Of a stretch of 64,000 nt of DNA, positions 19,330 to 38,800 are shown piece by piece. The notes beneath the pieces were generated by a model, which saw nothing but the letters and a program-made list of their open reading frames with translations, made no database searches and was not told the DNA's origin. Within the stretch, counting starts at the first letter, position 1. Each line of letters begins with the position of its first letter. This DNA is from Candidatus Thorarchaeota archaeon (GTDB lineage Archaea > Asgardarchaeota > Thorarchaeia > Thorarchaeales > Thorarchaeaceae), in the NCBI GenBank assembly GCA_048884965.1, contig JBHLQH010000001.1, positions 32,001 to 96,000 on the forward strand, written 5' to 3'. Both the position numbers and the translations under genes were made by a program.

Positions 19330-19381
19330 AAATGAACACATCCAATGTCTCCTGCGAGATTCGCCTTTTAGATGTAATGAA

Positions 19382-20041: not shown

Positions 20042-20086
20042 TAGGCACCCCCCTCTTTCTGAGGGGATAAGCCTTTGGAATCGTAC

Positions 20087-20524
20087 CTAATCTGTCTTTG
20101 CAGTTCTACGGGCAGCAATAGTGAGGAAAATTCCTATCCAACCCATCGTTTGAGCGGCGATAACAAGAAAGTCCCATGCTGCTGTAGCTCCTGAGAGCCA
20201 TATGAGCTCGACCAATTTGATTATCAATCCGATTAAGCTCATCCCAACTGCGATTCCAATAATGAACCTTCCAGTCCCAATTCTATCAGTCGTTAGCATA
20301 TAGCCTCCAATTATGGCTCCTATGCCTCCACTCAATGCTAGAATAGTTAGAATCCAGATCAATCCATTGACAATTGGAGTCATCGCTAGAAGCTCGGGGA
20401 TTTCTGTAATCAAATCCAAATATGCAAAGAATCCTATGCTTCCTGTTATTCCCTCTAAGAAGAGGATGATACCTCCAATCATTGCCAAGGCAAACGAGTG
20501 TTTATTCTTCAAATCAAATGCCAC
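20087..20524 (-). CDS. Hypothetical four-TM membrane protein
   Basis: 145 aa, Gly-rich hydrophobic helices. Confidence 0.78.
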   Translation of the reverse strand: MAFDLKNKHSFALAMIGGIILFLEGITGSIGFFAYLDLITEIPELLAMTPIVNGLIWILTILALSGGIGAIIGGYMLTTDRIGTGRFIIGIAVGMSLIGLIIKLVELIWLSGATAAWDFLVIAAQTMGWIGIFLTIAARRTAKTD

Positions 20525-20547
20525 CGCAGAGAAATATTGGAGCTACC

Positions 20548-21429
20548 TTATCTTTCTGGCGCCATATCATCAAACTTGCTGTACGCCTTGCCTCTTCTGA
20601 ATGTCGATGGAACCAAGTTACAGCAATCGCGTAGCAATGTAATCGCGTTGTCAATTCCATCTCCGATCATCTGTGGAGAATGTGCATCAGATCCAACGGT
20701 AATAGTATCTATACCCCTTGAAACCAGACTTTGAATGAGGTCTTTCGATGGATGTGGCTCAACTTGTCCTTTTCTCCAAGAAGAAGTATTGACCTCGAAA
20801 CCTACATTATACTTCAGCATTTTCTTCGCGAGATCGTCGATGTGTGGTTTCCATAAATCAAAGATAGGCCTGCCATACGAATCTTCACCATATCTCCTGT
20901 AAAGGTCTAGATGTCCAAGGACATTGACCATTGAGGTTTCAACTGTGTCTTGTAGTATTGAGAAGTAAAGATTTCCCATCTCTTCAAGGGTATATCGAGA
21001 GTAGATTACCTCTGCATCTTCTTTCTTGGATATGGCTAAGTGATCAATTAGATGCATCGAACCAATAACAAGATCCCATTCCGCCCGCATGAAACTTTCT
21101 GATAGATTGTCAATGACCCCTGGGTAGATATCCAACTCTGCACCCATCAATACGACTAGCCCAATTTCCGAGTACTTGTCTCCTGCAGTTCGTATTGCAT
21201 TTTCATAATCCTCAATCCACTCTTGAGAATGGACATCTATTGCTCTACCATTGACCGAAATGACACAATCTTCTGTTACTGGATCCGTATCGACGTGAGT
21301 TGTGAATGCGATCTCTTTCAGACCTTTTTTGACCGCCTCACTACAAAACTCCTCGATTGAGCCAATGGCATCAAAGGAATAATTCGGGTGAATATGGTAG
21401 TCGATCATTGGAAGATCAATCCTGTCCAT
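20548..21429 (-). CDS. Histidinol-phosphatase HisJ family (PHP domain)
   Basis: DYHIH, GSMH, GHLD, EVNT, GSDAH metal-binding motifs. Confidence 0.85.
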   Translation of the reverse strand: MDRIDLPMIDYHIHPNYSFDAIGSIEEFCSEAVKKGLKEIAFTTHVDTDPVTEDCVISVNGRAIDVHSQEWIEDYENAIRTAGDKYSEIGLVVLMGAELDIYPGVIDNLSESFMRAEWDLVIGSMHLIDHLAISKKEDAEVIYSRYTLEEMGNLYFSILQDTVETSMVNVLGHLDLYRRYGEDSYGRPIFDLWKPHIDDLAKKMLKYNVGFEVNTSSWRKGQVEPHPSKDLIQSLVSRGIDTITVGSDAHSPQMIGDGIDNAITLLRDCCNLVPSTFRRGKAYSKFDDMAPER

Positions 21430-21462
21430 TTACTTTATTCTACTTATTGTTCGGGGAATGTA

Positions 21463-22683
21463 CTACTCTTCAATCGCTAGGACAACAGGGGATTCACTTG
21501 TCTTGGGAGCGTCCTTCAGAAATAGTGCTGTAATGGCTGCTAGACCTGATACAACAACCAGGAATACTATTGAGGTAGCTAGTCCATAGACATCTCCAAT
21601 CCATCCAAAAACTGCTGGAGACACTGCTCCAGGAATGGCACCGATTGAGAAGAGGAGTCCGAAAGCAAGTCCTTGCTTTTCAGTTGGAGAAACCTCGGTT
21701 TCAAATGCTTGCCCCGGAGGAACACCAAAGAAGTAGATGAACCCTATTCCGACCAGTACTAGAATGAGAGGTAACGGATCAAGTGAGAGGTTTAGCAATA
21801 AGAACAGAGGGACCATGCTTAGTACTGACAGGAACATATATGGTACTCTACTTCCAGACCTGTCAGAAATTGGAGCAGATACAAGCTCTCCAAAGAGACC
21901 TGCTGTCAACATGATTGCTGTAAGAGACCCTGCCCATACAGGCTCATAGCCATAACTATCAACAAGATAGATTGGCATCATGAGCGTAGTGCATCTGAAT
22001 GGAATACCTCTCAGGCCCATGAATAATATTACGACGAAGAAGTTACGCGTCCAGCCAACCTGTTCCTTTTGCTCATTGTCATTTCCATTGGCGATATCAA
22101 TTCGTGTTTGATTATCGGCGTATCTCATGAGTACGAGAATTGGGAAGAATATGGCAATGCCCATCAGACCAAGTGTGAAGAGAGGTTCTCGCCATCCGCC
22201 AAAGAGAACGAGAAGGGAAACACCAAGGAAGGGGATGATTGCCATTCCAATCAGTCCACCTGCTGCATTGAAGCCAACGGCTTTCGCTCGTGCTGTCTTT
22301 GGGAATTTCGCTGAGATTGCAGGGAATGCGGATGGATGGTAGCCCGAAACTGCCAAACCAAGAGCTATTTGCGTACCTAGAAGGAACACGAAGCTAGTGG
22401 CGAAGCTTTCAACAAGCATCACCAAGCCTGATAGAATGACGCTAACGGATATGAAGAGATCTCGTAGACCTTTATCTCCAAGATATCCTACAATTAGGTG
22501 TGCAGAGGTCATAGTAACGATAACAGCACTAGTAAGAGTGCCTACCTCTGTCAGGGTGAGTGACAACTCATCTCGAATCAGTGGGAGAAATGGAGAGAGA
22601 GCTCCCGTGTACATGTGATTAATTAGATGTGACAATGTACATGCGATGAGCACACCATAGGAAGCCTTGGTTATCTTGGACAA
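21463..22683 (-). CDS. MFS transporter
   Basis: About 12 TM, GYLGDK motif A, YHP; likely TTG start at 22683 with GGAGA RBS (the ORF track extends to 22815). Confidence 0.88.
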   Translation of the reverse strand: MSKITKASYGVLIACTLSHLINHMYTGALSPFLPLIRDELSLTLTEVGTLTSAVIVTMTSAHLIVGYLGDKGLRDLFISVSVILSGLVMLVESFATSFVFLLGTQIALGLAVSGYHPSAFPAISAKFPKTARAKAVGFNAAGGLIGMAIIPFLGVSLLVLFGGWREPLFTLGLMGIAIFFPILVLMRYADNQTRIDIANGNDNEQKEQVGWTRNFFVVILFMGLRGIPFRCTTLMMPIYLVDSYGYEPVWAGSLTAIMLTAGLFGELVSAPISDRSGSRVPYMFLSVLSMVPLFLLLNLSLDPLPLILVLVGIGFIYFFGVPPGQAFETEVSPTEKQGLAFGLLFSIGAIPGAVSPAVFGWIGDVYGLATSIVFLVVVSGLAAITALFLKDAPKTSESPVVLAIEE

Positions 22684-22767
22684 ATCACAATAGTCTCCTG
22701 TGTTGGAGCCAGAGCCAGCACCTGAGATATGTAAATGTGATGATAAGGTCCATATCGAAGACGAATA

Positions 22768-22843
22768 GGGAAAAAGAAGGAAATATGCGGAAAGCTGATG
22801 ACTAGGTAAACCCAATCATCAGCACATCCGACTTCGACTCGGT
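22768..22843 (-). other. Structured intergenic element/terminator with U-rich tail
   Basis: GCTGATGA/TCATCAGC stem (22794-22823) extended by G-U pairs, followed on the minus strand by TTTCC...TTCTTTTT. Confidence 0.5.
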
Positions 22844-22927
22844 TTTTTGTATGTTAGGCTTGTACATCCTCCCTTTTAAACTTCCGAAACAAAGCAATCA
22901 AAGTGTGCAGGGAAGCACAATGGCACT

Positions 22928-24901
22928 CTAGAGAATATCAGAGAGCCAAAGACCAATTCTAAGCGCCAATAAGTCATCATCCAATGAGGCATAATTACCT
23001 CGAATTCCCCAATTATCAATGAAGAAATTGGTTCCAGTTATGACAAGTCTACCTCCTGCATTTCCTTCATAGCATGCAAGTACGGTATGTCCTGAGTAAC
23101 TTGCCAATCGGGTATAGCTTGCATTCGTTATCACAGAAGCACCCAGATAGTCGAAGGAATTTACTCCCGCCGTAATTGCGTGTGCATCTATTGAGGTTAC
23201 TTCGATTACGTTGCCTGTTGCTGGAATCGTGTTCGTAGTCATGGATGCTCCAGTCCACATCAGAAACTCGTTCAGTGATGATATATCCAAGGTTCGGTTG
23301 CTTAGTGCTGTGACAAAGATACCTCCACCATTCATGAAGTACTCTTCGTAAGCGTCTATCTCATCTGGAGTGAAGGGAATTGAGAATCTTGTTGGATTGG
23401 TATAATCAGTCTCATTTGTATCCCATGCGCATGGGTCCAAGAGAAATACTGCATCGAAATTAGACAAGTAGTCACTTGTAAGGTAACTTCTATCTCTAAT
23501 CTCTGTCACAGAAATATCGTTCTCAGAAAAATGAATGTAGAGTTCCTTGAACTGTCCATAGACAGTATCAATTGTCCAAGGAGTATGAGTGATATCAAAG
23601 GCGATTCGTGCTTCTGGACTTCGTGGAGATATATTGATTGCCAAAGAATCGCTTGAGTACTGATCAGCGAAGGTGATGGTTCCAATAATAAGATCTGATG
23701 CTGCAGGAACATGGATAGTGATAGGAACTAGTGCCGTTTGGTTTATCACCATACTTGTTGGCACCTCGACAATATCCTCTGAAATCCCTGATATGGAGAT
23801 ATCAAATATCGCAATGGTCGATGTTGTTATCTCTACCTCAAATGTATAGTTATCACCCAAGAATAGAGTTTCAAAATCCAGTGGTAGGGACTCAACATCG
23901 AGATATGTAAGACGTGGCAGATCATCGTGAATTGCTGCATCATCCAGAACGTTCTTTGATTCTTGTAGATTCGCCTTTCCAGCTCCCACAACATATTCGG
24001 GTTCATCAAGAGGTGTAGCTCCAGCCAGAAGAGCTGCTGTTATCGATCCCGGTGTGTATGAATAATCATTGGCAATGCAATGCTCAATGAGTTCTACAAC
24101 ATATGCTGCAATCTTGGGCGAAGCGAAGCTTGTACCGTAGTATATCGCACTTGTCGTTTCGACATAACCCTCTATTGCGATGTCTGGTTTCATGTACCTT
24201 TCCGCTGTTGGACCCCAACTTGAATAATAGGCTGCGACTCCGTTCTCATCCAAAGCTCCTACTGAGATTACCTTGGAGTAGACGCTTGGAGAGCTTATGC
24301 TTGTTCCTGGAAGGCCAGAATCGCCCTCATTGCCTGCCGCAGATACTACAATAACCCCTCTCGACCAAGCGTACTCAGCAACCGACTCAAGTGGGTCTCC
24401 TACAGTTGGCGAGGAACCAAGGCTAAGATTAATGATGCTGCAGTTTTGCTCAATCGCCCAATAGATTGCCGCGATCAGCGCCTCTGCAGTAGCGTATCCC
24501 GATGAGTCGATGACCTTTGCGACAACGATCCTTGCGCTATCACTATTTTGAACTAATGCACGAGTCACCATGGTGCCATGTCTGACATTATTCCCAGCTC
24601 CATCATCAGGATTCGAATCCGCAGTAGAAGTATCCGTGGTTTCATAGCCATACTGTGGAAGAATGAAACTCCGTTCAGCAACTACTCTCCCTGAAGTGGA
24701 GAAATCTTGGTCAAGTCCTGAATCAACAATTGCGACTCGAATGTTTCCATCAGTTGTAGGATTGATATTGAATGGAATGAGCTGGAAAATCGCAACTATT
24801 CCTGTTGAGATGACGATCAGTAAAATGATAATTACTGCAGCAATCTTTGTTCCAGTAGATTTAGTGGATTGCTCAGGTGGTGTATCCCAGTATAAGGCCA
24901 T
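22928..24901 (-). CDS. Membrane-anchored S8 subtilase with Ig-like and GATase-like (GldG/IFT52-type) C-terminal domains
   Basis: Triad IVDSG, RHGT, GTSFAS; oxyanion AAGNEG; N-terminal TM; C-terminal RIAFDITH...GGRLVITG. Confidence 0.9.
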   Translation of the reverse strand: MALYWDTPPEQSTKSTGTKIAAVIIILLIVISTGIVAIFQLIPFNINPTTDGNIRVAIVDSGLDQDFSTSGRVVAERSFILPQYGYETTDTSTADSNPDDGAGNNVRHGTMVTRALVQNSDSARIVVAKVIDSSGYATAEALIAAIYWAIEQNCSIINLSLGSSPTVGDPLESVAEYAWSRGVIVVSAAGNEGDSGLPGTSISSPSVYSKVISVGALDENGVAAYYSSWGPTAERYMKPDIAIEGYVETTSAIYYGTSFASPKIAAYVVELIEHCIANDYSYTPGSITAALLAGATPLDEPEYVVGAGKANLQESKNVLDDAAIHDDLPRLTYLDVESLPLDFETLFLGDNYTFEVEITTSTIAIFDISISGISEDIVEVPTSMVINQTALVPITIHVPAASDLIIGTITFADQYSSDSLAINISPRSPEARIAFDITHTPWTIDTVYGQFKELYIHFSENDISVTEIRDRSYLTSDYLSNFDAVFLLDPCAWDTNETDYTNPTRFSIPFTPDEIDAYEEYFMNGGGIFVTALSNRTLDISSLNEFLMWTGASMTTNTIPATGNVIEVTSIDAHAITAGVNSFDYLGASVITNASYTRLASYSGHTVLACYEGNAGGRLVITGTNFFIDNWGIRGNYASLDDDLLALRIGLWLSDIL

Positions 24902-25121
24902 GGTGATTCCTCAATGAATTGTCTATCCCGTCAAGGAGCCCAATCTAGGAAGATTGATGAACTTGTCGAACACGGAATTCGTACTCTTGAAGACTTATTA
25001 AGAAGCTTCAAAAGGTATTCCATCCATTCATCTAGTAGCTAGTGGTACGGAAGGGTTGATTACAAGATTATTTATCAATGCCAAATCATGCAAGCATAGT
25101 ATACTTTGTGAGGTACTGACA

Positions 25122-28073
25122 TTGTCTGAACAGCATTCCACCATTGTTGATGAATCAAAGATTATGAAATATCATGCGATGACTTCAGACGAAGTTCTTC
25201 AGGCTTTGTCAGTGAATCCTGAAATAGGTCTCACAGATGAAGAGATTCGGTCACGACAGGCGCAATACGGTCCTAATCAGATTCCGAAAATCAAAGGATC
25301 AATTTGGAAGATCTATATAGCTCCTATTCTTAACTGGCTGATTACAATCTACCTGCTCAGCTCTTTCGCCCTTGTTTTCCTAGCCCTCGCCTTTCCTACA
25401 GATCAATCACAGCTTGGTCAGGCGATATTCTGGCTGGCAATTGTTGCAGTGAATGCTATTGTCGCCATTTTCCAGCAGTATCGCGCACAGAAGAAATTAG
25501 AAGCTTTGGAAAAACTCTCTGCAGGTGATGCAAGAGTACTTCGAAATGGTGAGGAAACAACCATCGACCCTGTAGAAATCGTGCCTGGTGATGTCCTGAA
25601 ACTTGAGCAAGGGGATCGAATCCCTGCGGATGGCAGGATTATTACAAGTTCAAATCTATCAGCAAATGAAGCTTCTCTCACTGGTGAGAGTGTTCCGGTT
25701 GTCAAGAGTGCCTCATCACTTGCAGAAGATGGTGCTCCACTGACAGATATGCATAATATGCTCTTCTTTGGCACATACATTTCCACAGGAGTCGCAAAGG
25801 TTGTTGCCACTACTATTGGTGGATCAACCGAGATAGGGAAGATACAGGGCACCCTTGAGGAGCTAAATACTGGTGATATTCCCTTGAGAAAGAAGGTCAA
25901 TCTACTTGCAAAATATCTAGGGATTGCCGCTTTGGTTTTGATGTTTATTTCCATAACATGGGCAATTTTCTTTAGTCCATTGTTTACGGGTTCTGCAGGC
26001 ATTTCTGAATTCGACGCAATTATTGATACCATTGCAGCAGGGATAACAAAAGCAATGACCATCATGCCAATTAACATCCCTCTCCTAACAACAATTGTTC
26101 TCCTAACTGGCGTTCTGGCAATGGCAAAACGTGGTGTGATTATTCGTGATCTATCGGCAGTAGAAAGTCTAGGTCGGGTTAGTGTGATTTGCTCAGACAA
26201 GACTGGCACAATGACGAAGAATGAGATGATGGTTGAATATATCTGGGATACTGAGCGTCTTTACACTATTACTGGTGATGGATACGAACCTCGTGGGGAA
26301 ATATTGAAGCTGAAAGCAAATGCAAATAGTGAGGATTTGAGCTTGGAAAACGCTTCGCCCCTAGTTGGAGTCGAATCATATGATAATTTGAGGTTACTCC
26401 TTCTTTGTGGAGGGATCAATAATGATTCCGCACTTAGTGTAAAGGAGATTCCCGGTCAGGGCTTATCATATATCCCAATAGGTGATCCAACTGATGCAGC
26501 TCTTCTTACGTTATTCAGAAAGAGTGGTATTGATGAGGTAGAAGCAAAGGAGAAGTATCCCATAGTAATGGACTTTCCATTCGATTCTCAATTGAAGCGG
26601 ATGTCGAAAATCACTGGGTCTGAAACAAAGTATGTTCTATTCACTAAAGGCGCAACAGAGGTAGTGTTACCTCGTTGCACGCATTTCAATAATTCTGGAA
26701 AATCTGCAATCATAAACGATCCCATGATTAAGCAGATCACCACGCTCACTGAAGGTTTTGCATCCAAGGGATATCGAGTAATCTCACTTGCATATCGCTC
26801 GATGGATGATTTGCCATCAACTCATCATTTACGGGATGAGGTGGAGAAGAATCTTGTCTATCTAGGGTTTGCATGCATTGTTGACCCACCCAGAGATGGA
26901 GTCAAGGAAGCTGTGGATGAATGTCACAGTGCGGGAATTAATGTTATTATGATCACTGGTGATGCAGCTGCGACAGCGCAGACGATTGCGAAGAATTTGA
27001 ATATCTATGAGGAAAATTCTATTGCTGTCGAAGGTGGCGAAATTGGTACGCTTTCTGATGATGATTTCGCACGAGTCAATGTATTTGCCCGAGTCAATCC
27101 TGAGCACAAGCAGATAATCGTTGAACGATATCAGGATCAGCGAAAGGTTGTCGCAATGACAGGCGACGGCGTGAATGACGCTCTAGCTCTTGCAATGAGT
27201 GATGCAGGGATTGCGATGGGTATCACAGGGACCGATGTAGCGAAGGAAGCTGCTGATCTTGTAATCACAGATGATAGCTTCTCATCCATCGTCACTGGGG
27301 TTCATGAAGGTCGTGGTCTTTTCAACAAAATTAGAATGATGGTCTTCTTCTATATTGCCATCAACCTTTTCGAATCAGTGATTTTCTTTGGTGCACTTTT
27401 CCTCTTACCAGCAGGGTTCAATATGCTCACATCGTGGCAAAGTCTGCTTCTAGTAGCGACGACCCATTCTTTCCCCGGACTCGCGCTTGTCTTTGACAAA
27501 ACCTCACCAAGGGCAATGGAAGAGAAACCTCGTGATAGTGAGGATATAATAACGCGAAAACTCGCTAAGTTCATGGCAATTGGTGTTTTCCTAATGGTCA
27601 TTGGTGCTGCTATCGTTTACACTCTTGCTTTCAACGCTCAGCCTGGTGACCTCCTCTATGCTGTGCCTGAGAACCTCACTGGGTGGTATAATGAAGCATC
27701 AACTACTTTACCTGATGATTGGACCATTCAAACTGCAAAAGCTACGACTATGTTACTTACAATCATACTGATTTTTGAAAGCACTTTGGTGCTTATTATC
27801 AGAAGAATAAATCTGCCCTTCCACAAGTCAGTTTCTGAACCTGGTATAATCAGGTATGTTGTCTTGCTGGGTTTGATAGTCCTTGCATTCCTACTCTTAA
27901 TGTACGTCCCAGTGGCTCAGGAGATACTTGTAGGAGCCTTACCTGGATTTGAATTCTACTTCCTCCCCCTCACCACACTTGATTGGACGATTTGCATTCT
28001 CGCTACGCTTCCTGCGTTGATTGCACTTGAGGCATACAAAGCATCGTATCGAAGACGAGGAGAGCCACTATAG
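25122..28073 (+). CDS. P-type ATPase (P2A/SERCA-like scaffold, atypical transport site)
   Basis: TGES, DKTGT, KGA, DPPR, MITGD, TGDGVND motifs, about 10 TM; likely TTG start at 25122 with GAGGT RBS. Confidence 0.93.
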   Translation: MSEQHSTIVDESKIMKYHAMTSDEVLQALSVNPEIGLTDEEIRSRQAQYGPNQIPKIKGSIWKIYIAPILNWLITIYLLSSFALVFLALAFPTDQSQLGQAIFWLAIVAVNAIVAIFQQYRAQKKLEALEKLSAGDARVLRNGEETTIDPVEIVPGDVLKLEQGDRIPADGRIITSSNLSANEASLTGESVPVVKSASSLAEDGAPLTDMHNMLFFGTYISTGVAKVVATTIGGSTEIGKIQGTLEELNTGDIPLRKKVNLLAKYLGIAALVLMFISITWAIFFSPLFTGSAGISEFDAIIDTIAAGITKAMTIMPINIPLLTTIVLLTGVLAMAKRGVIIRDLSAVESLGRVSVICSDKTGTMTKNEMMVEYIWDTERLYTITGDGYEPRGEILKLKANANSEDLSLENASPLVGVESYDNLRLLLLCGGINNDSALSVKEIPGQGLSYIPIGDPTDAALLTLFRKSGIDEVEAKEKYPIVMDFPFDSQLKRMSKITGSETKYVLFTKGATEVVLPRCTHFNNSGKSAIINDPMIKQITTLTEGFASKGYRVISLAYRSMDDLPSTHHLRDEVEKNLVYLGFACIVDPPRDGVKEAVDECHSAGINVIMITGDAAATAQTIAKNLNIYEENSIAVEGGEIGTLSDDDFARVNVFARVNPEHKQIIVERYQDQRKVVAMTGDGVNDALALAMSDAGIAMGITGTDVAKEAADLVITDDSFSSIVTGVHEGRGLFNKIRMMVFFYIAINLFESVIFFGALFLLPAGFNMLTSWQSLLLVATTHSFPGLALVFDKTSPRAMEEKPRDSEDIITRKLAKFMAIGVFLMVIGAAIVYTLAFNAQPGDLLYAVPENLTGWYNEASTTLPDDWTIQTAKATTMLLTIILIFESTLVLIIRRINLPFHKSVSEPGIIRYVVLLGLIVLAFLLLMYVPVAQEILVGALPGFEFYFLPLTTLDWTICILATLPALIALEAYKASYRRRGEPL

Positions 28074-28090
28074 AGCATTTCAAGGGTAGT

Positions 28091-30046
28091 GTGATGATTC
28101 TGCAATTTGTTCTTCTAGATGATCCATTCTGGCCCCTTCTCATAGCATTGGCAATATTCCTACTTGTCGTTGGAAGCTTCATCAAGCTTCAGACTCGGAA
28201 ACGGGATGGAATGGTCGAGCAAATCAATCAACTACTGCTATCAAGACCATCTGTGTCCTTAACGGAGCTTATTCACCACCTTGACACAAAACGCATGGAC
28301 CGAAAAACTCTGACTGGGCTCATTCAAAGATCCAATGCCGCAATTATGAGTTTCTCGAAGACTTCAGTCATATCTTCAATTCTTCTGAGTGCACGATTAA
28401 AGGAGAATCTCGTGAACAATTCGATTATTTATGTTGACAAGGAAGCCAACCGCTGGGATGTTGCTCCAAATGAGATTGAACGAATTGTGGGGGATATCAG
28501 CCAGCGAGAGGGTCTTGATGTTCTTCTTACTAAAGATGGCGATTATCTACTAGTTCCGGATTTGAAAGATCGAATACGTGAGTCTCTGGAATTACAGGGG
28601 CGAGCTGACATTATCGCTGAATCTCAGAGATTGCGTGTTGATGTTGATGAGTTGGTTCAACTTGTTAGGAGTTGGGGTTGGTATGTTTGGCAATCTTCAG
28701 CAGGTTCCCTCTACTCAGTAAAATGGCTTCTTGATACTCTTGAAAGAAGTGTTGCACGAACCGGATACCTGGATCTTGATACAGAATCCACACGGTTAGA
28801 TTTGACGCCAAATGATATCATGAGGGTTGTTAGTCTCTACAAGTGGGATTTTGTAGAAGCATTTGACAATCGAATAATCCCTGCGCATCTACTTCAAGAG
28901 CAATTGCTATCACGTCTTGAACGATTCGGATCTTTGAACATAAATGAAGAAGCTAACAGATTAAAGATCTCTCCTGAGGGATTACAGCGAGTACTAAAGA
29001 AGCTGGGACTCACTCTTATTACCACGCATGATGGATCCGTTATGACACTTGAGCAGATTAGGCAGGAATTGCTTGATGATGCTGATCTTGCAGGTATTAT
29101 CTCTGCTGAGGAATCTGCTGGAAGACTTGGAATCGAGGAGGGCCTAGCGAGTAGAATTCTTGGGAATCATTCAGGTGTGAGAAAACTAAAGGACGGCCGA
29201 TATGCTTCCTATCGCGCTCTCAGGAGCTACATCTTGGAAGAAGTAAGGAAGACTGGAATCATCTATACAGATAAAATGGAGAAAGATTGGCTAGTGAATC
29301 GAATTGAGCTGGCTGCTCTTTTAAAACGATTTGGACTTAAGATCACTCTTACAAAGTCAGGGAACTACCTCTCGATATCGTGGCTTCGGAGAAGGTTGGG
29401 AGATTCATTACAGGTCGGAGAGGCACTCAATCCAAGTGAGCTGGCACAACGATACGATACTGAGATTAATGTCATCGAATCAATTGTCGCAACCATCCAG
29501 ACAGACACACTGATCGATGGAGAGGGAATGATGATATCTCGGAATGCTCTATACAATGAATTGGAATCCCAATTCCACAATATGGGAATTCTTCGTCCAT
29601 ATACTATTGCATCAGAGAGGGGATTAGACATTGCAGATATCCAGAAGACCCTCCAACCTCTTACATCTGCATCATTTAGGACCGAAGAAGATGCAATGGT
29701 AAGCAAGATTTGGCTTCTGAGGAAGATACAGGAAGCATTGAAGCAGAAAGGTATCTTTGACCTTACGACTCTGTGTGAAGGCATGCAACTGAATTATGAC
29801 ATAGTCCATTCTGAGATTGAATCTCGTTTGTCTGAAGACGACAGGCTACTGGAGAGCTGTGGTGTGATTGTTGCAGCAAAGTGGATCGCTATTCTAAAGA
29901 ATCTCGCAAAGGAGGAGGGCTCTATAGATGTGACAAAGTTTGCCGCCTCTCAAGACATTCCCAAAAAATCTGCACTCTGTGTTCTTCGAGCACTCCTACA
30001 GGGGGTATATCTTCCATCTAATGATAGCTATTTCACAAAGACCTAA
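28091..30046 (+). CDS. TM-anchored tandem winged-helix protein, UFL1/DDRGK1-like
   Basis: N-terminal TM, then about 11 units of about 57 aa (G.h.h...A..L.h....h...h + beta-hairpin T.DG.Yh); resembles the UFL1 N-terminal region as recalled. Confidence 0.7.
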   Translation: MMILQFVLLDDPFWPLLIALAIFLLVVGSFIKLQTRKRDGMVEQINQLLLSRPSVSLTELIHHLDTKRMDRKTLTGLIQRSNAAIMSFSKTSVISSILLSARLKENLVNNSIIYVDKEANRWDVAPNEIERIVGDISQREGLDVLLTKDGDYLLVPDLKDRIRESLELQGRADIIAESQRLRVDVDELVQLVRSWGWYVWQSSAGSLYSVKWLLDTLERSVARTGYLDLDTESTRLDLTPNDIMRVVSLYKWDFVEAFDNRIIPAHLLQEQLLSRLERFGSLNINEEANRLKISPEGLQRVLKKLGLTLITTHDGSVMTLEQIRQELLDDADLAGIISAEESAGRLGIEEGLASRILGNHSGVRKLKDGRYASYRALRSYILEEVRKTGIIYTDKMEKDWLVNRIELAALLKRFGLKITLTKSGNYLSISWLRRRLGDSLQVGEALNPSELAQRYDTEINVIESIVATIQTDTLIDGEGMMISRNALYNELESQFHNMGILRPYTIASERGLDIADIQKTLQPLTSASFRTEEDAMVSKIWLLRKIQEALKQKGIFDLTTLCEGMQLNYDIVHSEIESRLSEDDRLLESCGVIVAAKWIAILKNLAKEEGSIDVTKFAASQDIPKKSALCVLRALLQGVYLPSNDSYFTKT

Positions 30047-30136
30047 TCCGACATATATAATATATATTGATTCAAATTGATATTGGAATCCTATATATTG
30101 TGATGAATATATCTATCAAACTGGAGAGATCCATCA

Positions 30137-30991
30137 TTGGTTAGAACAACAACCTTCAAGATTCGTCAGATGAAAGAGAAAGGCAAAAAGATAGTCATGC
30201 TTACTGCTTATGATACTCCGACCGCTAAAATTCTAAGTGATGTAGGTGTAGACATCATCCTAGTTGGGGATTCAGTAGGCAACTCTTTGTTAGGATATGA
30301 AAGTACCGTCCCTGTTACTCTTGATGACATTATCCATCATTGTGCTGCTGTTTCAAGAGCAAAGCCAAGTAGTCTCATTGTGGGAGATATGCCTTTCATG
30401 AGCTACAAGGTAAGCGTCGAGCAGGCTCTGGCGAACTGCGCCATGATGTTGCAGAAAGGAGGTGCGGAAGCTGTCAAGATCGAAGGTGCAGGGCGAGTTG
30501 TTGATATTGTTTCAGCTGTTGTTGATTCAGGAATTCCTGTGATGGGGCATATCGGTCTTACACCTCAATCCATCTATGAACTAGGAGGATATCGTGTTCA
30601 AGGAAGAACAGCTGATGCAACTGAGAAGCTTGTCGAACAAGCTCTTGCCTTGCAAAATGCAGGTGCATTCTCTCTTGTGATAGAACTGGTTCCAACAGAA
30701 ACAGCAAAAGCAATCACAGAAGCTATTGATATTCCCACTATAGGCATCGGAGCCGGACCTCATTGTGATGGACAGGTGCTAGTTCTTTGGGATATGCTAG
30801 GACTTTTTGAGGACTTCAAGCCTAAGTTTCTCAAGAAATATGCGAATGTAGGAGAGGTCATCCGTACCGCTGTTGCGGATTATTCAAGTGAGGTACGAGA
30901 TGGGACTTTTCCTGCAAAGGAACACAGCTTTGAGATGTCAGAAGAAGAGTCTGGTCGTCTCTACGGACGCGTAAAGCCAAATAAAGAGTAG
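30137..30991 (+). CDS. panB: 3-methyl-2-oxobutanoate hydroxymethyltransferase
   Basis: MLTAYD, LVGDS, GDMPFMSY, KIEG, GHIGLTPQS, TIGIGAG; TTG start with GGAGAG RBS. Confidence 0.96.
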   Translation: MVRTTTFKIRQMKEKGKKIVMLTAYDTPTAKILSDVGVDIILVGDSVGNSLLGYESTVPVTLDDIIHHCAAVSRAKPSSLIVGDMPFMSYKVSVEQALANCAMMLQKGGAEAVKIEGAGRVVDIVSAVVDSGIPVMGHIGLTPQSIYELGGYRVQGRTADATEKLVEQALALQNAGAFSLVIELVPTETAKAITEAIDIPTIGIGAGPHCDGQVLVLWDMLGLFEDFKPKFLKKYANVGEVIRTAVADYSSEVRDGTFPAKEHSFEMSEEESGRLYGRVKPNKE

Positions 30992-30993
30992 AG

Positions 30994-31013
30994 AGAGTCC
31001 CAAAAAGGACTCT
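30994..31013. terminator. Hairpin between convergent panB and DUF1858 genes
   Basis: AGAGTCC-CAAAAA-GGACTCT. Confidence 0.55.
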
Positions 31014-31015
31014 AC

Positions 31016-31231
31016 TTAATTCTCTTTAATGGACTCATTGAGTGCTTCTACAAGCTTATCGGGATCAATACCGTGTGCCAATGCACCTTGCTCAATGTTC
31101 TCATATCTGGCAACTGCGCAGCCATAGCAATGCAAGCCCCATTCCATGAAGGTGCCAGCAGTTTCAGGCCACTTCATTACCACTTCTGCAATCGTATCAG
31201 ATTTCTTAATCGCTTCAGCCATAGTAATCAA
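31016..31231 (-). CDS. DUF1858 domain protein (hybrid-cluster-associated redox disulfide domain)
   Basis: TIAEVV...PET...F...GLHCYGC...ENIEQGALAHG; true start possibly 31222. Confidence 0.88.
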   Translation of the reverse strand: MITMAEAIKKSDTIAEVVMKWPETAGTFMEWGLHCYGCAVARYENIEQGALAHGIDPDKLVEALNESIKEN

Positions 31232-31290
31232 CCTTATTCGGCTTAACTATGTTAAATCGGATATTCTAATCTTTTATACTTTAGGTTGTG

Positions 31291-32292
31291 TCAACCAGCT
31301 TTGATACTATACCGATTGCCTACGCTCCCTTCAACATAGGCTTCTTTCATCTGCACACTCATTTCATGACGCGCTCTCCATCCAGTACAGTGGCATGGGA
31401 CGAGAAGGCTGGGTTCCATGAGTTTCAGGTCACTCACAGTCCTCGAAAGTTTACTTATACCACCGTCCTTTGAAACCTCTGAACCTGCAAGATGAAAACC
31501 ACCAATGATAGCATGAATCCTGTTTTCCCCTGTCAATCGTGATGCTTCTTTTGCTATATTGACGATTCCAGCGTGGCTGCATCCTGATATCACAACTAGT
31601 CCTCTTCCTTTCACCTTTGCGACTAGACTAACGTCTTCCAGGACTTTGCTATCATCTTCCCATTTGCCATCGATCATCATCAGATGTCCCGGTCTTCCTT
31701 CTTCATAGTCTGTAACTCTGGGGATTTCACCTGTTCGTAGAAGCATCCCCCCAGATAGAAGAATAGGATTCGGATTCGAGATAATTATGCCACCAAGCTT
31801 GGAAATCTCCTCTATAGGGAGTATAGGTCTATTCTCGATTATTCTCTCACCTTCCTTCGTCTTCATAGTAGCACCTTTCTTGTAGATCATTCTAGGATGC
31901 AGATACAAAAGTACAGGATGGTGGCAATTCTCTAACACCCATCTTAGTCCTCCATAATGATCATCATGTCCATGTGAGAGGACAATCCCATCAAGTTCAT
32001 TTAATGGAAGACCCAATGACTGCAGATTCGTTGACATATGGATTGTCGATTCACCTGTGTCCAGTAAGATGTTCGATTCCATTCCATTGAGGCTCATTCT
32101 GATCCAGAGCGAGAGTCCTACACCCGCTACCAAGGGGACATCATCATTGACGCTTTCTATGCTCTTCCACTGGAAGAATCGTTGTACATCATCTCTCCTA
32201 GGATTTGACCAGAGCTCGATTGAATTGTCAACTACAGCTGTAACTTCAATACTATCTAATGCTTTCAGGTTGGCGAATTCCATGCTTGGCAC
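31291..32292 (-). CDS. MBL-fold metallohydrolase (MJ0301-like family)
   Basis: LLDTG, LSHGHDDHYGG, GCSHAG, GGFHL, PCHCTG. Confidence 0.88.
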   Translation of the reverse strand: MPSMEFANLKALDSIEVTAVVDNSIELWSNPRRDDVQRFFQWKSIESVNDDVPLVAGVGLSLWIRMSLNGMESNILLDTGESTIHMSTNLQSLGLPLNELDGIVLSHGHDDHYGGLRWVLENCHHPVLLYLHPRMIYKKGATMKTKEGERIIENRPILPIEEISKLGGIIISNPNPILLSGGMLLRTGEIPRVTDYEEGRPGHLMMIDGKWEDDSKVLEDVSLVAKVKGRGLVVISGCSHAGIVNIAKEASRLTGENRIHAIIGGFHLAGSEVSKDGGISKLSRTVSDLKLMEPSLLVPCHCTGWRARHEMSVQMKEAYVEGSVGNRYSIKAG

Positions 32293-32309
32293 CGATTTTT
32301 AATCCAAGG

Positions 32310-32741
32310 TTACAGCAGCATATGGTGCAAGCCCATCTCTCTTAGTACCTCTGGGAAGACTTTGAAGACCGGCTTGATTTTTGAGAGAAGTCCTAGAGCC
32401 TTTGCAATAGAACCTTGCATTTTGACCTCGCCCTTTGCCATGGCAATTGTTGTGTTCAACTTTCCCTGCCAGAACTTGTTCGTTGTTTCGGATGTGCTCC
32501 ATACAACTATCTCAGGTTCTACGTTTGAGTCGAAGCTGAGCGTACCTACCTTTCCATCTGGTCCTGGATTCGCAAAGTCGATTGTAACATGAATCTCTGG
32601 GTTCTCGATATCGAATCTAACTACAATTCCAGATTTCACCAGCTTCTCGAAAACATCCTCCATCTCTAAGACTTTGGGCCAAAATTTCTCAAATACCTGC
32701 TTTAGCTGTTCAGTACTCTCATAGAAGGGCATTGCATCCAT
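32310..32741 (-). CDS. Stand-alone SCP2 sterol/lipid-binding domain protein
   Basis: FWQGKLN...AMAKGEVKMQG SCP2 signature. Confidence 0.85.
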   Translation of the reverse strand: MDAMPFYESTEQLKQVFEKFWPKVLEMEDVFEKLVKSGIVVRFDIENPEIHVTIDFANPGPDGKVGTLSFDSNVEPEIVVWSTSETTNKFWQGKLNTTIAMAKGEVKMQGSIAKALGLLSKIKPVFKVFPEVLREMGLHHMLL

Positions 32742-32843: not shown

Positions 32844-35800
32844 CTACTCTTCCATACTTCTGTCCATCTGCTCTAGGACAGCATCAAGCTCGGCTCTGGT
32901 CATATCCTTCGCGCTCTCAAGAACTTCCTCGATCTGCTCCTTAGGAAGACCTAGCTTAGCAAGTCGCTCACCTACTTCTTGGAGTTCTTCAGCCGTCACC
33001 TTTCTTGTAGCATCTGCTTTCTCAGGTCTCTTCTCGGCAATCTCTTGAGCTCTCCTCGCCCTCTCTTGCTTGATGACCTCATTAAGGAACCCAGGTCTCT
33101 CACTAGGCTTCATTCTTGCAAGATCAGTTCGAAATGCTGCAATATCATCTTCGCCAAGTCCAGTAATTTCAGCAAGCTCCAAGAGAAGTGCTTCTGTTTC
33201 GGGTACATGGAATTCGATGGTCAACATTGGTATCTCATCGATTGGCTTAGAGATGTTGATTGCGTTGAGGCCCTCATTGATGATTCCTTGAATCATGAGG
33301 TTTCTCTCTCGAACTTCTGGTTTTTCAGGAACTTTCGCCTTTGAAAGCGACTTGATCATTCCATTCATGATTCGGATGAGTTTTGGCACACTGTACACCT
33401 TCACCCAGAGCAAGGCTCCAATGAGTGCCAAGATGATGCCAAAGCTACCGCCAAACATAACAATCGTCATGAGTGGATCCGCTGGTGGTGCAGTCACTAT
33501 AACTGTGAAAGCAAGAGTGAGTTGCTCGTAATTCTGACCATTTGAGGCATGAATTACAATTTCGAACTCTCCAGCAGATGGAACTATGAATCCTATGATG
33601 TACTGTCCAGCCGCCTCACCAGGCATCACAGAATAATCACTCTCACCTATGACACCTGTTGCTTGTGTTAGGTAGATATCTGCATCAGTTATTGGTAAGT
33701 TGTGGTCAAGATCCCAATACTCGATCACAATCTGTAGGTATTCTCCACTTAATGCAGTTGCAAAAGTGTTCCCTGACTGAGTTCTGAGATCAGTATCTAT
33801 AGGACGAATTATGATAGTGATTATTGTTGATACACGTGCATAGTTCTCCTTGTTGACTACGATAGTCGCATCGTACGATCCAAGTATTGCTGTGTTTGGT
33901 ATCTCGAAGGTATAGTTACCTGGATTCTCAGAATCCTCTACAAGCACTGCGCCTAGTGCCCATAGGACACTACCATCCGCTCCTGTCACAGGTCTGCCAT
34001 AGACTGTATCATTGATATAGACACTGGCAATCATGGTATCTCCGACAGGAACTTGAATGACATTCAGCACGATGATTTCCATTGTAATCGAACGTACTTG
34101 TAGGGTTGCAGATGTCGTCCTTGTGATGTAGTTGCTCTTTGTTGCTGTCACACGGATGTCGAATGAGGACGGAGCTACCTCAGTACTATCAAGTAGTACT
34201 TTGTAGATACCATTTCCTACCTCTTCCAACACACCAGAGCCGCCTGTCCATACGTACTGGAGAGTGGCATTCTCGATTGGCACCTCATTGTGGACGTCAT
34301 AGTAGCTAAAGAACATCCAGATGGACTGCTCATAGAAGATTGACAACGTTGCGTTCAGGGGTTGAACAGTTGTATCTATTCTCTGTACCTCGAATAGCAT
34401 AGAGAGAGTCGATGTTTCATAGCCCGCTTTGGTCGCAACTATGTACATGCTGAATGTTCCAGCGTACAAGTCTGAAGTAGTCAGTGTGATGTTGTATATG
34501 CCATTACCTTCCTCTACCAATGTTCCGTTGTAATCCGCATCACTGAATCTGAAGACCACTGATGCGCCAAGGATAGGTAGACTCAGGTCAATATTCGAAT
34601 AATTGACCCTAAGCACAACACTTTCACCGAATATAACCCTCAGAGTAGCTTCTCCAATTGGGTTTAGGTCGGTTTCCACAAGTCCAATGTCTAGACTAAA
34701 GTAGATACTTGCTTCAACGTGATTTGATTTGTTGGCTCGTACATATAGGGTGTAGACATTGATATTCACATCGGTTGTATCGATGAATGCTGAATAGTAT
34801 CCAGTCTGGGATGTTGCAGTCAATGTGCCGCTACGTTCACCATCACCAGGGTCCCATCGGTATTCGACTGTCGCCCCTGTAATCGGTCCGAACGCCAAGG
34901 ATTCGAAGTATACCGTGATATTGACAGATTGACCACTAACGACCGAGTATGCATAGATTTCATTCAAGCTTGAGAAATCTGTTTCTAGAACTGAAACAAC
35001 TACAGTAACTTGAATGATTCTTGCCTCGAAATTACTCTTGTTTGCGGTTATTGTGACAATATAGGTTCCAGCCTTAATAATTGAGGAATCAATTGATACG
35101 GTGTAGTTGAGCGCATATTCATCAAATGCGAATTCCATTCCTGAGATAGTAGCTTTGATATCAGCTCCAACAACCATACCACCGAGATCTAAGTTGTCAT
35201 AGTATACGGAGATGTCAATGGTTTCACTCCAATTTAGCTGAATCAATGACGTTTCTGTTGTGAGTTCCGTTCTTGTCTGTCGAAGAACTAGATCGACGAT
35301 CATTGATGCGGATGTATATCTAGTGCGTGTTGCAGTAATGTCATAGGAGTACGTTCCAGCAGGTTGTTGCCAGAGGAAGTAAGTAATATTATATTCTCCA
35401 CCACCCAGCTCTGCGATGGAATACGTACCACCTGGTGCGGTCGTGAATATGGTCGCGCCAGTAATGCCTGTATTATGATCGAGATCTTCGTAGGTGATTA
35501 TCACACTTACATTACTTCCTGCAACAACATTTCCTGCGAAGCTTGCAGAGATTGCAGTTTGAATCCTTCGAACCTCAAACTTCACAGAAGTAGTAGCAGA
35601 TGAATACCCTGTTTTAGTGACTGTAAAGGATACAATATAGTTGACTAGGTTTGTTACACTGGCGGTATAGAGGGTGACACTGAATCCATCCCCCGGAATC
35701 ACTGCCCACGACCATCCATATGGCCAATTGGTGCCAATCGATGCTCCTGTAATGTTGAGAGAATGGTCAGTATCAAAGTAGATAATTGTTACAGCAACTG

Positions 35801-38800
35801 TATCTCCTACTGGAACGACTGATGGATCAGGAGATGATGCAATAGCACTTGTACTGATTAGTCTAATAGTGATGTAGATAGTTGCCGTCTTTGTCAAGTA
35901 GAACGACTTGTTGAATGTGAACTGAGCACTGATTTTACCTGTGGTTGTCACCCACGAAGTATCCAAGGTAATGTTGAATATTCCATTTCCAAGAATTTCG
36001 TATGACCAATACCCGCCTGGCCACGTCGATGATATCGAAGCTCCGAGAATAATCTCCTCATGATCCAAATCATAAAATGTAATGTTCACTAAGGTCGAGT
36101 CTCCAATTGGGACCGTTCCTGGATCGGGAGCGTCTGCCAGTGTTTGAGTGAAGATGCTTCGGATCACAGCTCTGATAATTGTACCATTTGCATCTGGATA
36201 GAATGGTAGTCCTCCACTCCATGTGATGTCAATCTCGAAGTATAGTGCTCCAGTGGTCAAGAATGGAGTGCTATTGATAGTGAACACTATCTTGCCATCT
36301 TCTGGATTCGTGATCGATACTTGGAATGGACCTCCTGGAGTTGTGTTCAGGGGTGTGATATAGGCGTGTACATAGGTATCATTTGCAATACCTGCTCCGG
36401 TGGAGCTGTCTCTGTACCAGACTACGATGACAATGTCATCTCCGATAGGAATTTGGTCAGGAGGCTCATATGAGAGAACTGAACCTGCCCCTGTGATCGT
36501 CACGACGAATTCTATGGTTTGATTCTCGAAGTATGGCTTTCCATTGATCCAAATGAATGAAGCCTCAAATGCAAAATCACCGGTGGATCCAAGTGAGGTG
36601 GCATTGACTAGGACCTGATAAACTCCTGGTGAAGTCTGTGTAATCCACCAATCTACACTCCTATTCAGAGATACTTGCACACCTCCAAGGACTGTATCAT
36701 TGAATATTCCAGTGCTGCTGTCCAAGTCGATGTATCTGAACACAATCGTGATGTTGCTTGTGTAACTTGTTTGGGCGATCGGGTTAATGGTAAGCTGTGT
36801 ATTCCTAGCTCGGATATCCGCATCGATCACTAGGGATTGATCGTCATATCTGTAGGTAGGGTCTCCTGCAACCGATATAGTCAGATTGTATCTTCCGAAA
36901 ATACCGAATTTTGTTGTGTTGATGTGCAGATGATATGTTGCTCCCGAGATGTATTCAATCCAGTAGTAGCTCGAATCAACGGCGGTTCCGTTTACGGCAT
37001 CCAAGGAGAAGAATGCAACAGAGGTTGATATTGCCAGAAGTCCTGCATCTACATCGTAGTACTTTAGAATCACCGTCAAATTGTCACCAAATGGTGTTTC
37101 TTGAGGTGGTGTGTATGTCAATCTAGTCGCTCTTTCTCTTACTTCTACTTGCAGTGATCTTGTCTTGTTCTGATAGAAGGGCTCTCCAGACGATGAGATC
37201 TGTGCAACCAATGAGAATGTATCAACATCTCCAAGAGCACTAGAATCGACTTCGGCAATATACTCACCATTTCCGAGATCAGTAATCCAGTAGTTAGTGT
37301 TCAGAACTAAAGACTCTGCGGCTCCTGCACAGCTAAGTGTGATAGTACTACCAGTGATTCCTGAGGCGGTTATAGTATCTTCAAATGTGAAACTTATCGT
37401 TACATTATCTAGATATGGTGCAGCTCCCTCGACATCATAAGATAGTTGTGTTGGCCTTGCAGTTACTCTTCCAGTCACTGAACGGGGTCCAGCATCCGAC
37501 CAATAGTCTGGTGCATTGAAGGAAACCTGCATCGTATAATCAGTAAGCTGATTCAGAATGCTTGTGTCAAAGCTCACATTGTATTGTCCACTACCGATCT
37601 CAAGCACATTGACTGATGCAGTAGAAAGTCCGGATGGTGTAACGAAGGTAAGTACGATATACGAAATCATTCCCTCAAGTCCTGTGCCATCCGTTCCGTT
37701 ATCGATATCGAGAATTGTAACTATAAAGAAGGAAACCTCATCATAGTATGTAGAATCGGGTGAAGTAGTGCTTAGCTCAACCGATCGATATGCAACTTTC
37801 AGATTGATGCTACGTAGACTATCAGATAACCACCAATCTGTCGAATTGACCTTCAAGCTCAAAACATATGTTGCAGGTGCTCCAAGAGCACTAGTGTCAA
37901 TTTTTACTTCATAGACACCATTGCCCAAGTATGTAACCCAGTAGTTGGCGTCCTTTTCAAGTGTTTCAATGGAGGTTCCACATGAAAGATAGACATTGCC
38001 TGAGGCTATGGCAACTGGAATCGCTCCTTCAATATCGTTGTATGTTACATTGAAGAATGTGAAGTTGCCATAGGGTGTAGCTGGTATTGCCTCGTAATCA
38101 AGGGATGTGACTCGATCTCTAACGCTTCCGGTGATATTCCTTGAAAGTACGCTGTAGTATGGTGAAGATCCAGAGTGGTCGAATTTTATGGTTATTTTGT
38201 AAGAACTGACCATTCCAAGTATCGTTGTGTTGAAAGTGATCCTATACTGTCCGTCACTTCCTAGTACAAAGGATATGATTGGATTGTCACCGATACTAGG
38301 AATCACGAAGGTTGCAGAAATGTATGATTCATTATTGTTGATGAATTCTCCCGTCACACTATCCTGTAATGTTATGTAGAAGGTACTGTTCTCAAGATAT
38401 GCTGTTACATCAGGGAAGTCAATCTCCAGTGTAGCGACTTTCATGTTTATTGTAAGTATCGCAGATACTGCAGTCTGATTCTCGAAGAATGGACTTCCAC
38501 TCCACATAACCGTCATGTTGATACGGACTATTCCCAAGAGACCCGTTCCATCTGTGACGACATATACCTCATAGAAGCCGCCAACGGGAGTTGGATTCAC
38601 TTCGTAGGTGAGTCCATTCAGAACCGAAATAGTCAAACTGCCTCCAGTAATCAATTCGCTATTGTTGTCGAGATCGACATATTTCAGTAGAATCGTTGCA
38701 TTCTCGCCATAGAATACAGGATCCACTACGATCTGCGGAATGGCAGTATCACGCATTCGAACTGTGATGGAAATCAACTTGCTTACTTGATCTTCGTAGT

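Follow-up and report, generated by a model that had tools for sequence, protein, structure and literature searches.

The eukaryotic DDRGK1-UFL1 pair comprises an N-terminal membrane anchor, a helical stalk and a cytosolic body built as a continuous tandem array whose units are seven winged-helix (WH) domains, one of which is assembled from two halves contributed by the two proteins. In UREL, the UFM1 ribosome E3 ligase, every WH domain but WH1' of UFBP1 touches the 60S subunit, six out of seven in all (PMC10937380). The tRNA sites of that subunit are taken up by a C-terminal domain (CTD) of UFL1. UFL1 also possesses a helix, alpha1, that is essential for UFC1 binding and ligase activity (PMC10702826, PMC10937380). 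Here, a gene from a Candidatus Thorarchaeota archaeon (GenBank assembly GCA_048884965.1) is described that encodes a membrane-anchored array of eleven WH units in a single chain, referred to below as the WH protein. The gene occupies positions 28091..30046 of the forward strand of a 64,000-nucleotide stretch of contig JBHLQH010000001.1, hereafter the window, and the resemblance of its product to UFL1 is a specific homology.

UFL1 and DDRGK1 were reported to originate in Asgard archaea and to predate UFM1 (Picchianti et al. 2023, PMC10183829). A single-chain Asgard architecture, termed Loki-type here, was published by Liu et al. 2020 (bioRxiv 10.1101/2020.10.19.343400) and corresponds to asCOG cog.003822 of Makarova et al. 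2024 (PMC10936438, supplementary file 9); this architecture explains the statement that UFL1 and DDRGK1 are both derived from Asgard archaea. Asgard homologues of the two proteins have, then, already been published. The architecture in which a transmembrane (TM) helix precedes eleven WH units is new: no description of it in Thorarchaeia was found in the literature consulted, and databases label the protein hypothetical.

Architecture of the WH protein

The gene is an uninterrupted open reading frame (ORF) of 651 codons, with its stop codon at 30044-30046 and a probable start at ATG 28094, which is preceded by an AGGG motif. An identical database protein of 650 amino acids (aa) begins at the same ATG. 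Only one strong hydrophobic segment was found by hydropathy analysis, at aa 13-31 (28127..28183; Kyte-Doolittle mean 2.59 over 19 residues), and it was helical in both structural models. Acidic residues (LLDDP) precede this single TM helix and a basic cluster (KLQTRKR) follows it. Because of this charge pattern, the protein is predicted to be a reverse signal anchor with N-out/C-in topology, in which a short acidic N-terminal tail would lie outside and the bulk of the chain in the cytoplasm. The basic juxtamembrane cluster and a short stalk helix (aa 32-51; 28184..28243) are continuous with the TM helix in the model, and separate the membrane from the array by ~20 aa. The N-terminal TM helix was found in most homologues, and the basic cluster that follows it was kept in most of 20 homologues.

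A model of the full protein was produced with AlphaFold2 (AF2) from a 13-sequence alignment (mean predicted local distance difference test score, pLDDT, 86). It consists of a helix at 14-51, comprising the TM segment and stalk, followed by eleven consecutive units of three helices and two beta-strands, each of ~55 aa. A second model, of residues 1-265 (pLDDT 87.7, predicted TM-score 0.70), agrees with it. WH1 (aa 52-95; 28244..28375) is basic, with a net charge of +4, and diverges in sequence from the other repeats. WH2 (aa 96-155; 28376..28555) contains an invariant tryptophan, W122, and the wing LDVLLTKDGDYLLVP, and gives the best match in sequence to the composite domain (pWH'/pWH) of DDRGK1/UFL1. 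WH3-WH10 (aa 156-595; 28556..29875) are eight homologous and mostly acidic repeats of 54-57 aa, with model boundaries at 156-209, 210-264, 265-319, 320-373, 374-428, 429-483, 484-538 and 539-595. The last unit, WH11 (aa 596-651; 29876..30043), is basic and has three helices, no wing and a disordered tail at 645-651.

The repeat pattern is far beyond chance, since WH2-WH10 are mutually homologous when the eleven units are compared by hhalign (mostly 80-98% probability); WH11 matched more weakly and WH1 was divergent. A conserved glycine recurs every 54-56 residues along the array, and a wing motif (x-D/S-G-x, then hydrophobic residues) recurs in WH2, WH5, WH6 and WH7. Seven of the eleven units are net acidic (eight in the mean of a 20-sequence family alignment), and the cytoplasmic part as a whole has a net charge of -8 and an isoelectric point (pI) of 5.7; the basic parts are WH1, WH7, WH11 and the stalk. 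The ORF, its N-terminal TM helix and an array of about eleven WH repeats had been proposed from the DNA letters in an original prediction, and all three are borne out by these results; every peptide string quoted there is present in the order given.

Homology to UFL1 and DDRGK1

The Pfam model of the UFL1 family (PF09743, E3_UFM1_ligase) matched the WH protein at 31.0 bits (E 2.6e-7; gathering cut-off 23.2), with the best stretch at aa 482-582. The same model matched 13 of 13 aligned family members (best E 5.3e-15) and exceeded its cut-off in none of the control genomes. A search of the PDB with the single sequence returned nothing useful, and UFL1 was reached by family profiles only. When a first family profile was compared with all PDB sequences, two chains alone were recovered: a DDRGK1-UFL1 chimera (8b9x) and UFL1 (8c0d_A, E 0.0054). 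With a more diverse profile of 20 sequences, the engineered chimera was the sole significant match (E 1.4e-8).

The best stretch of the chimera match pairs query residues 116-187 with 8b9x residues 93-166 (26 bits) and spans the junction between DDRGK1 and UFL1. The alignment starts at the last DDRGK1 residues, IAW, which lie opposite the invariant W122, continues through the partial WH of UFL1, where LEVVHTLDGKEYITP is set against LDVLLTKDGDYLLVP, and ends in WH1 of UFL1, with HVRGGRVNIV against ELQGRADII. The segment that had been likened to the UFL1 N-terminus in the original prediction is the very segment that HMMER aligns to UFL1 and to 8b9x. A profile restricted to the N-terminal region (aa 32-158) also recovered the 8b9x junction (E 0.0044), together with spurious KdsB matches at similar E-values.

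Structural comparison gave the same order. In a Foldseek search of the PDB, the top five matches were all UFL1 or the chimera (2.7e-12 to 3.9e-8), among them 8qfc_B (2.7e-12), 8ohd_A (2.8e-11), 9gy4_E (2.7e-10) and 8b9x (1.6e-8), and were followed by SelB (1.2e-5), RPC82 and ESCRT-II. With the N-terminal model, 8b9x (1e-8) and UFL1 (~2e-7) again preceded SelB (4.2e-5), so that UFL1 was ahead of SelB by 10^3-10^6-fold. VIA-align superposed model residues 32-265 on residues 0-253 of the chimera, with 229 of 256 residues aligned and a Z value of 10.8, ~2 units above generic single-WH matches; the full model aligned with 8b9x in the register 142-378 (Z 12.9). The ESM Atlas neighbours were UFL1 clusters with scores <0.9, which are of use as a lead only. 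At E <= 1e-3, eukaryotic UFL1 lay beyond the reach of an exhaustive profile search, which returned only archaeal WH arrays, and a word-based search with the Loki-type alignment returned Asgard proteins only. Because UFL1 came first both by sequence profile and by Foldseek, the preference for UFL1 over SelB, ESCRT-II and generic WH domains that had been predicted is upheld.

SelB, the best structural match other than UFL1, shares with the WH protein a tandem WH array (its C-terminal WH1-WH4; PDB 1lva, 2uwm). Unlike the Thorarchaeial protein, in which no GTPase domain was found by Pfam, SelB has a GTPase/elongation-factor body and binds SECIS RNA, and no relation between the two was found at the level of sequence.

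Correspondence with a DDRGK1-UFL1 fusion

The WH protein resembles DDRGK1-UFL1 in its N-terminal membrane anchor, helical stalk, cytosolic body and continuous tandem WH array. It differs in being one chain rather than two, with the two-half WH of the eukaryotic pair represented by a single domain, in having eleven WH units instead of seven, and in its stalk, which is ~20 aa compared with ~180 aa. It also differs in lacking the UFL1 helix alpha1, the UFL1 CTD with its peptidyl transferase centre (PTC) loop, the DDRGK motif and the UFM1-interacting motif (UFIM).

The topology, the WH2/WH3 junction chosen by HMMER and the N-terminal structural alignment lend moderate support to colinearity with DDRGK1 followed by UFL1, which falls short of proof for the individual repeats. 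By position, WH1 corresponds to WH1' of DDRGK1. WH2 is favoured as the equivalent of the composite domain only by the HMMER and N-terminal VIA-align results, and alternative registers of the array reach comparable scores. The Pfam DDRGK model (PF09756) gave no match to the WH protein at E <= 10 and matched one of 13 family members at E 0.11, and the DDRGK motif was absent from 20 of 20 aligned members. The earlier description of the protein as resembling a DDRGK1-UFL1 fusion stands as regards a fusion-like layout, on the junction-spanning match and the N-terminal superposition; the DDRGK1 identity of WH1 is the part that found no sequence match.

Features specific to the ligase

The UFC1-binding helix alpha1 is not present in the WH protein, as helix 2 of WH2 passes directly to helix 3 (aa 122-126) in both models and in the junction alignment. 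None of the UFL1 C-terminal families was detected by Pfam; the chain ends after WH11, and the model is WH throughout. No UFIM was found in the protein. All WH units in the models are complete within the one chain, with no partial WH that is completed in trans.

The UFM1 machinery was sought by Pfam in the genome, a 4.09-Mb metagenome-assembled genome (MAG) of 99 contigs and 95.7% completeness. No match was found to Ufm1, UFC1, E2 (UQ_con), UFSP (Peptidase_C78), CDK5RAP3 or ubiquitin; UBA5 (ThiF, PF00899) was not among the families searched, and Pfam was judged unable to separate UBA5 from other ThiF-type E1s. Ufm1 exceeded its Pfam cut-off in 0 of 301 sampled Asgard genomes. The earlier statement that the window contains no UFM1 or UFC1 gene therefore extends to the whole genome at the sensitivity of Pfam. 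Sub-threshold DDRGK matches elsewhere in the genome were taken as generic winged helix-turn-helix (wHTH) domains, and the same model also matches 9 of 14 control genomes.

The genome also encodes a small ubiquitin-like candidate without annotation, ~93-96 aa long and with the C-terminus ...RLMSGVR, at G000:C20:45061-45360 (+), equivalent to L060:8074-8364. It belongs to no Pfam family, and its neighbours are unrelated: CdhD, an acetyl-CoA hydrolase/GNAT fusion, a ParA-like ATPase and an ABC transporter.

Distribution and Asgard relatives

Database homologues of the WH protein are 52-79% identical, are labelled as Candidatus Thorarchaeota MAGs, are all ~650 aa in length and all match PF09743. 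When 1.8 billion cluster representatives were searched exhaustively with a profile, 17 full-length clusters were recovered. Across the 301 genomes sampled from the phylum, full-length members were confined to the family to which the window belongs (f1), where they were present in 21 of 76 genomes. A broader profile matched in 24 of the 80 genomes of f1 and in 11 of its 16 genera, including three with only weak partial matches (G063, G108, G116). Full-length copies occur in nine genera.

PF09743 itself exceeded its cut-off in 102 of the 301 genomes. The strongest matches in this survey (50-72 bits) were to ~790-aa proteins, found in 62 of 68 genomes of another family (f9) labelled Lokiarchaeota/Promethearchaeota. 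In these Loki-type proteins a PF09756 match (47-56 bits) lies immediately upstream of the PF09743 match (64-74 bits), and PCI matches and a Vps28 C-terminal domain are also present. An hhalign comparison of the Thorarchaeial family with the Loki-type proteins gave a probability of 88.6% (E 2.6e-6) over Thorarchaeial residues 239-485. The two are therefore alike as homologous single-chain WH arrays, with the DDRGK-like and UFL1-like parts contiguous in one polypeptide in the Loki type. They differ in that the Loki-type protein is soluble, without a TM helix, and has N-terminal zinc fingers, ~5-6 WH units and adaptin-ear-like and Vps28 C-terminal domains, whereas the Thorarchaeial protein is anchored by a TM helix, has eleven WH units, carries no accessory domains and is patchily distributed. 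The first 100 residues of the Loki-type proteins (L020-L033) carry a CxxC...CxxC...CxxH...HxC pattern that recalls an AN1-type zinc finger, followed by a second cysteine cluster; a weak Pfam match to Zn_ribbon_Top1 was obtained in one of three proteins scanned.

The designation 'ancestor-like', which had been applied to the WH protein, is not supported by this comparison: the family is limited to part of one Thorarchaeial family, and its PF09743 score is below those of the Loki-type proteins, in which the DDRGK and UFL1 matches lie side by side. The WH protein, a more divergent relative of the Loki type, is a side-branch relative of the DDRGK1-UFL1 backbone and is not the closest Asgard relative of UFL1.

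Other relatives carry WH arrays in different settings. A 384-aa protein of a further Asgard family (f16; L065:479-1630:+, G058) has two N-terminal TM helices and covers PF09743 profile positions 32-200, and akin proteins of 387-397 aa occur in three other genomes of that family; this is a second, shorter membrane-anchored UFL1-like array. Six distant homologues (P0033, P0039, P0043, P0047, P0053, P0054) have a signal peptide and a PKD, NosD/beta-helix or laminin-G ectodomain, followed by a TM helix and, directly after it, the WH array, an arrangement that is receptor-like. The f16 proteins (~385 aa) and the archaeal receptor-like proteins thus resemble the WH protein in having a homologous array just cytoplasmic of the membrane. 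They differ from it, as it has essentially no ectodomain, by their signal peptides and large ectodomains or their two TM helices, and by their shorter arrays. Membrane-proximal placement of WH arrays recurs among the relatives. Additional distant arrays are fused to STAND NTPase (P0046) or TPR (P0052) modules. In another Asgard family (f5), soluble proteins of ~252-269 aa (L061-L064) match only the distal part of PF09743 (profile ~115-265), and each of their genes is divergent from, and adjoins, a gene for a KaiC/RecA-like P-loop ATPase.

Genomic neighbourhood

A P2-type cation ATPase gene (25161..28073, +) ends ~20 nt upstream of the WH gene, and panB, encoding ketopantoate hydroxymethyltransferase (30137..30991, +), begins 90 nt downstream. 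Neither the gap from the ATPase stop codon to the WH gene nor that from the WH gene to panB contains a terminator-like site; downstream, the next such hairpin (30994-31013) comes after panB. The three genes are probably one transcription unit. Their order was kept in 11 of 11 loci from nine genera, within a block of ~12 genes (window 18778-32741; loci L042-L051) that is syntenic across nine Thorarchaeial genera and includes PHP, MFS, divergently oriented S8 subtilase, P-type ATPase, WH, panB, metallo-beta-lactamase and SCP2 genes.

The WH gene is the only member of this block that is cleanly present or absent: in eight genomes without it (L052-L059), panB directly follows the ATPase gene. An orthologue of the ATPase (58-78% identity) was found in 76 of 80 f1 genomes, compared with 24 of 80 for the WH gene. 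An obligate partnership with the ATPase is ruled out by this phyletic pattern and by the clean presence and absence of the WH gene. Two paralogues of the ATPase, at 36% identity, are encoded in the genome (G000:C5:167555-170302 and G000:C1:202794-205232). Downstream of the WH gene, after a few further genes, comes a giant ORF of 4603 aa (window 32844-46655, -).

Proposed function and alternative explanations

Scaffolding or docking is most likely to be the function of the WH protein. It is a single-pass membrane protein with a cytoplasmic rod of eleven tandem WH domains, homologous to the spine of DDRGK1 and UFL1, in which the anchor, the stalk and the WH domain that are split between two eukaryotic proteins are held in one chain. 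Its most likely role is to keep a large cytosolic partner docked at the membrane's inner face, as a scaffold without catalytic activity; the scaffold is presumed non-catalytic because the E2-binding helix, the UFL1 CTD and the DDRGK motif are absent and no recognisable UFM1, UFC1 or ubiquitin machinery was detected in the genome. A non-catalytic membrane docking scaffold related to the UFL1/DDRGK1 spine is the best explanation of these observations, and one that we hold to be slightly better than an even proposition. The large ribosomal subunit is the leading candidate for the partner by analogy with UREL, although this assignment is tentative and on balance doubtful.

Several observations weigh against this interpretation. 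The stalk is ~20 aa, compared with ~180 aa in DDRGK1, and the membrane geometry must therefore differ from that of UREL. Most of the WH units are acidic (net -8 and pI 5.7 for the cytoplasmic part), which disfavours broad contact with rRNA. The gene is absent from ~70% of the sampled f1 genomes, which precludes a core function in translation; the function is dispensable in many Thorarchaeia and is accessory. The registers obtained by different methods differ (142-378 for the full model, 239-485 for hhalign against the Loki-type proteins and 116-187 for the HMMER junction), the register being ambiguous because the array is periodic, and WH1 gave no sequence match to DDRGK1 WH1' with either PF09756 or the N-terminal profile. 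Finally, structural modelling led Köstlbacher et al. 2026 (PMC12962969) to report Ufm1 homologues in nine Asgard clades; as such structure-level homologues are invisible to Pfam, the absence of UFM1 holds at Pfam sensitivity only.

The last of these points bears on an alternative in which the WH protein functions as an E3-like adaptor within a cryptic system of ubiquitin-like conjugation, for example one using a divergent Ufm1-like protein that escapes Pfam, and recruits its E2 in another way. Besides the structure-based homologues, the genome encodes at least one small ubiquitin-like candidate (C20:45061-45360), and no E3 of this kind other than the UFL1-type scaffold is known. However, the essential UFC1-binding helix is missing (PMC10702826), UFC1, UQ_con, Peptidase_C78 and CDK5RAP3 were not found in the genome by Pfam, nor Ufm1 in any of the 301 Asgard genomes, and the candidate has no Pfam family and lies amid CdhD, acetyl-CoA and ABC-transporter genes. 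Such an adaptor is therefore considered improbable, as is a membrane-tethered DNA or RNA binder that would use classical wHTH contacts to hold, for example, the chromosome or one specific RNA at the membrane. The structures that best match single domains are DNA- or RNA-binding wHTH domains (Z-alpha, PurR, BirA, IclR, ScpB and SelB; Z 7.5-9.4), and these, with the basic WH1, WH7, WH11 and stalk, would suit a nucleic-acid binder. These Z values are nevertheless at a level that VIA-align itself rates as common for single WH domains, seven of the eleven units and the cytoplasmic part as a whole (net -8) are acidic, and by sequence the family belongs with the protein-binding WH domains of the UFL1/PCI type.

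A role as an accessory or regulatory subunit of the upstream P-type cation ATPase was given marginally less credence again. The two genes share a strand, are separated by ~20 nt that hold no terminator and adjoin each other in every one of the 11 loci examined (nine genera), and both products reside in the same membrane. Adjacency weighs little, though, because the whole ~12-gene block, with panB, MFS and PHP, is equally syntenic, and 76 of 80 genomes have the ATPase but only 24 the WH gene, with panB taking its place after the ATPase where the WH gene is absent. The least probable alternative, and one that is largely refuted, is that the protein is a generic WH repeat protein that has merely converged on UFL1. 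Low structural TM-scores (0.17-0.42) with large root-mean-square deviations, the presence of SelB, RPC82 and ESCRT-II among the structural matches, and the failure of the exhaustive profile search to arrive at eukaryotic UFL1 at E <= 1e-3 would be expected of convergence. Against it, PF09743 exceeded its cut-off in 13 of 13 members and in no control genome, the only significant sequence match in the whole PDB was the DDRGK1-UFL1 chimera (E 1.4e-8), and the Loki-type proteins, at 64-74 bits against PF09743, form a bridge.

Implications for the UFL1-DDRGK1 spine

UFL1 and DDRGK1 are the only components of UFMylation that have been traced to Asgard archaea, and it was proposed that both are older than UFM1 and served a role independent of it (PMC10183829). 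The WH protein lends support to the idea that the composite WH domain shared by DDRGK1 and UFL1 came about when a once-continuous array was split. A stronger reading is that it represents the state of DDRGK1-UFL1 before fission, a membrane clamp that docks large ribosomal subunits or ribosome-translocon complexes without UFM1 conjugation. This is unlikely; if true, such a clamp would have been the ancestral role from which eukaryotes went on to develop the UFMylation of ribosomes at the endoplasmic reticulum. The patchy distribution of the family is a warning in this respect, as it indicates an accessory function and a side branch, not a direct ancestor.

The Thorarchaeial protein is a natural minimal version of the spine, reduced to anchor, stalk and WH domains and resembling the fusion that was engineered to crystallise the human pair. 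As such, it offers a clean object with which to establish what the WH spine binds on its own.

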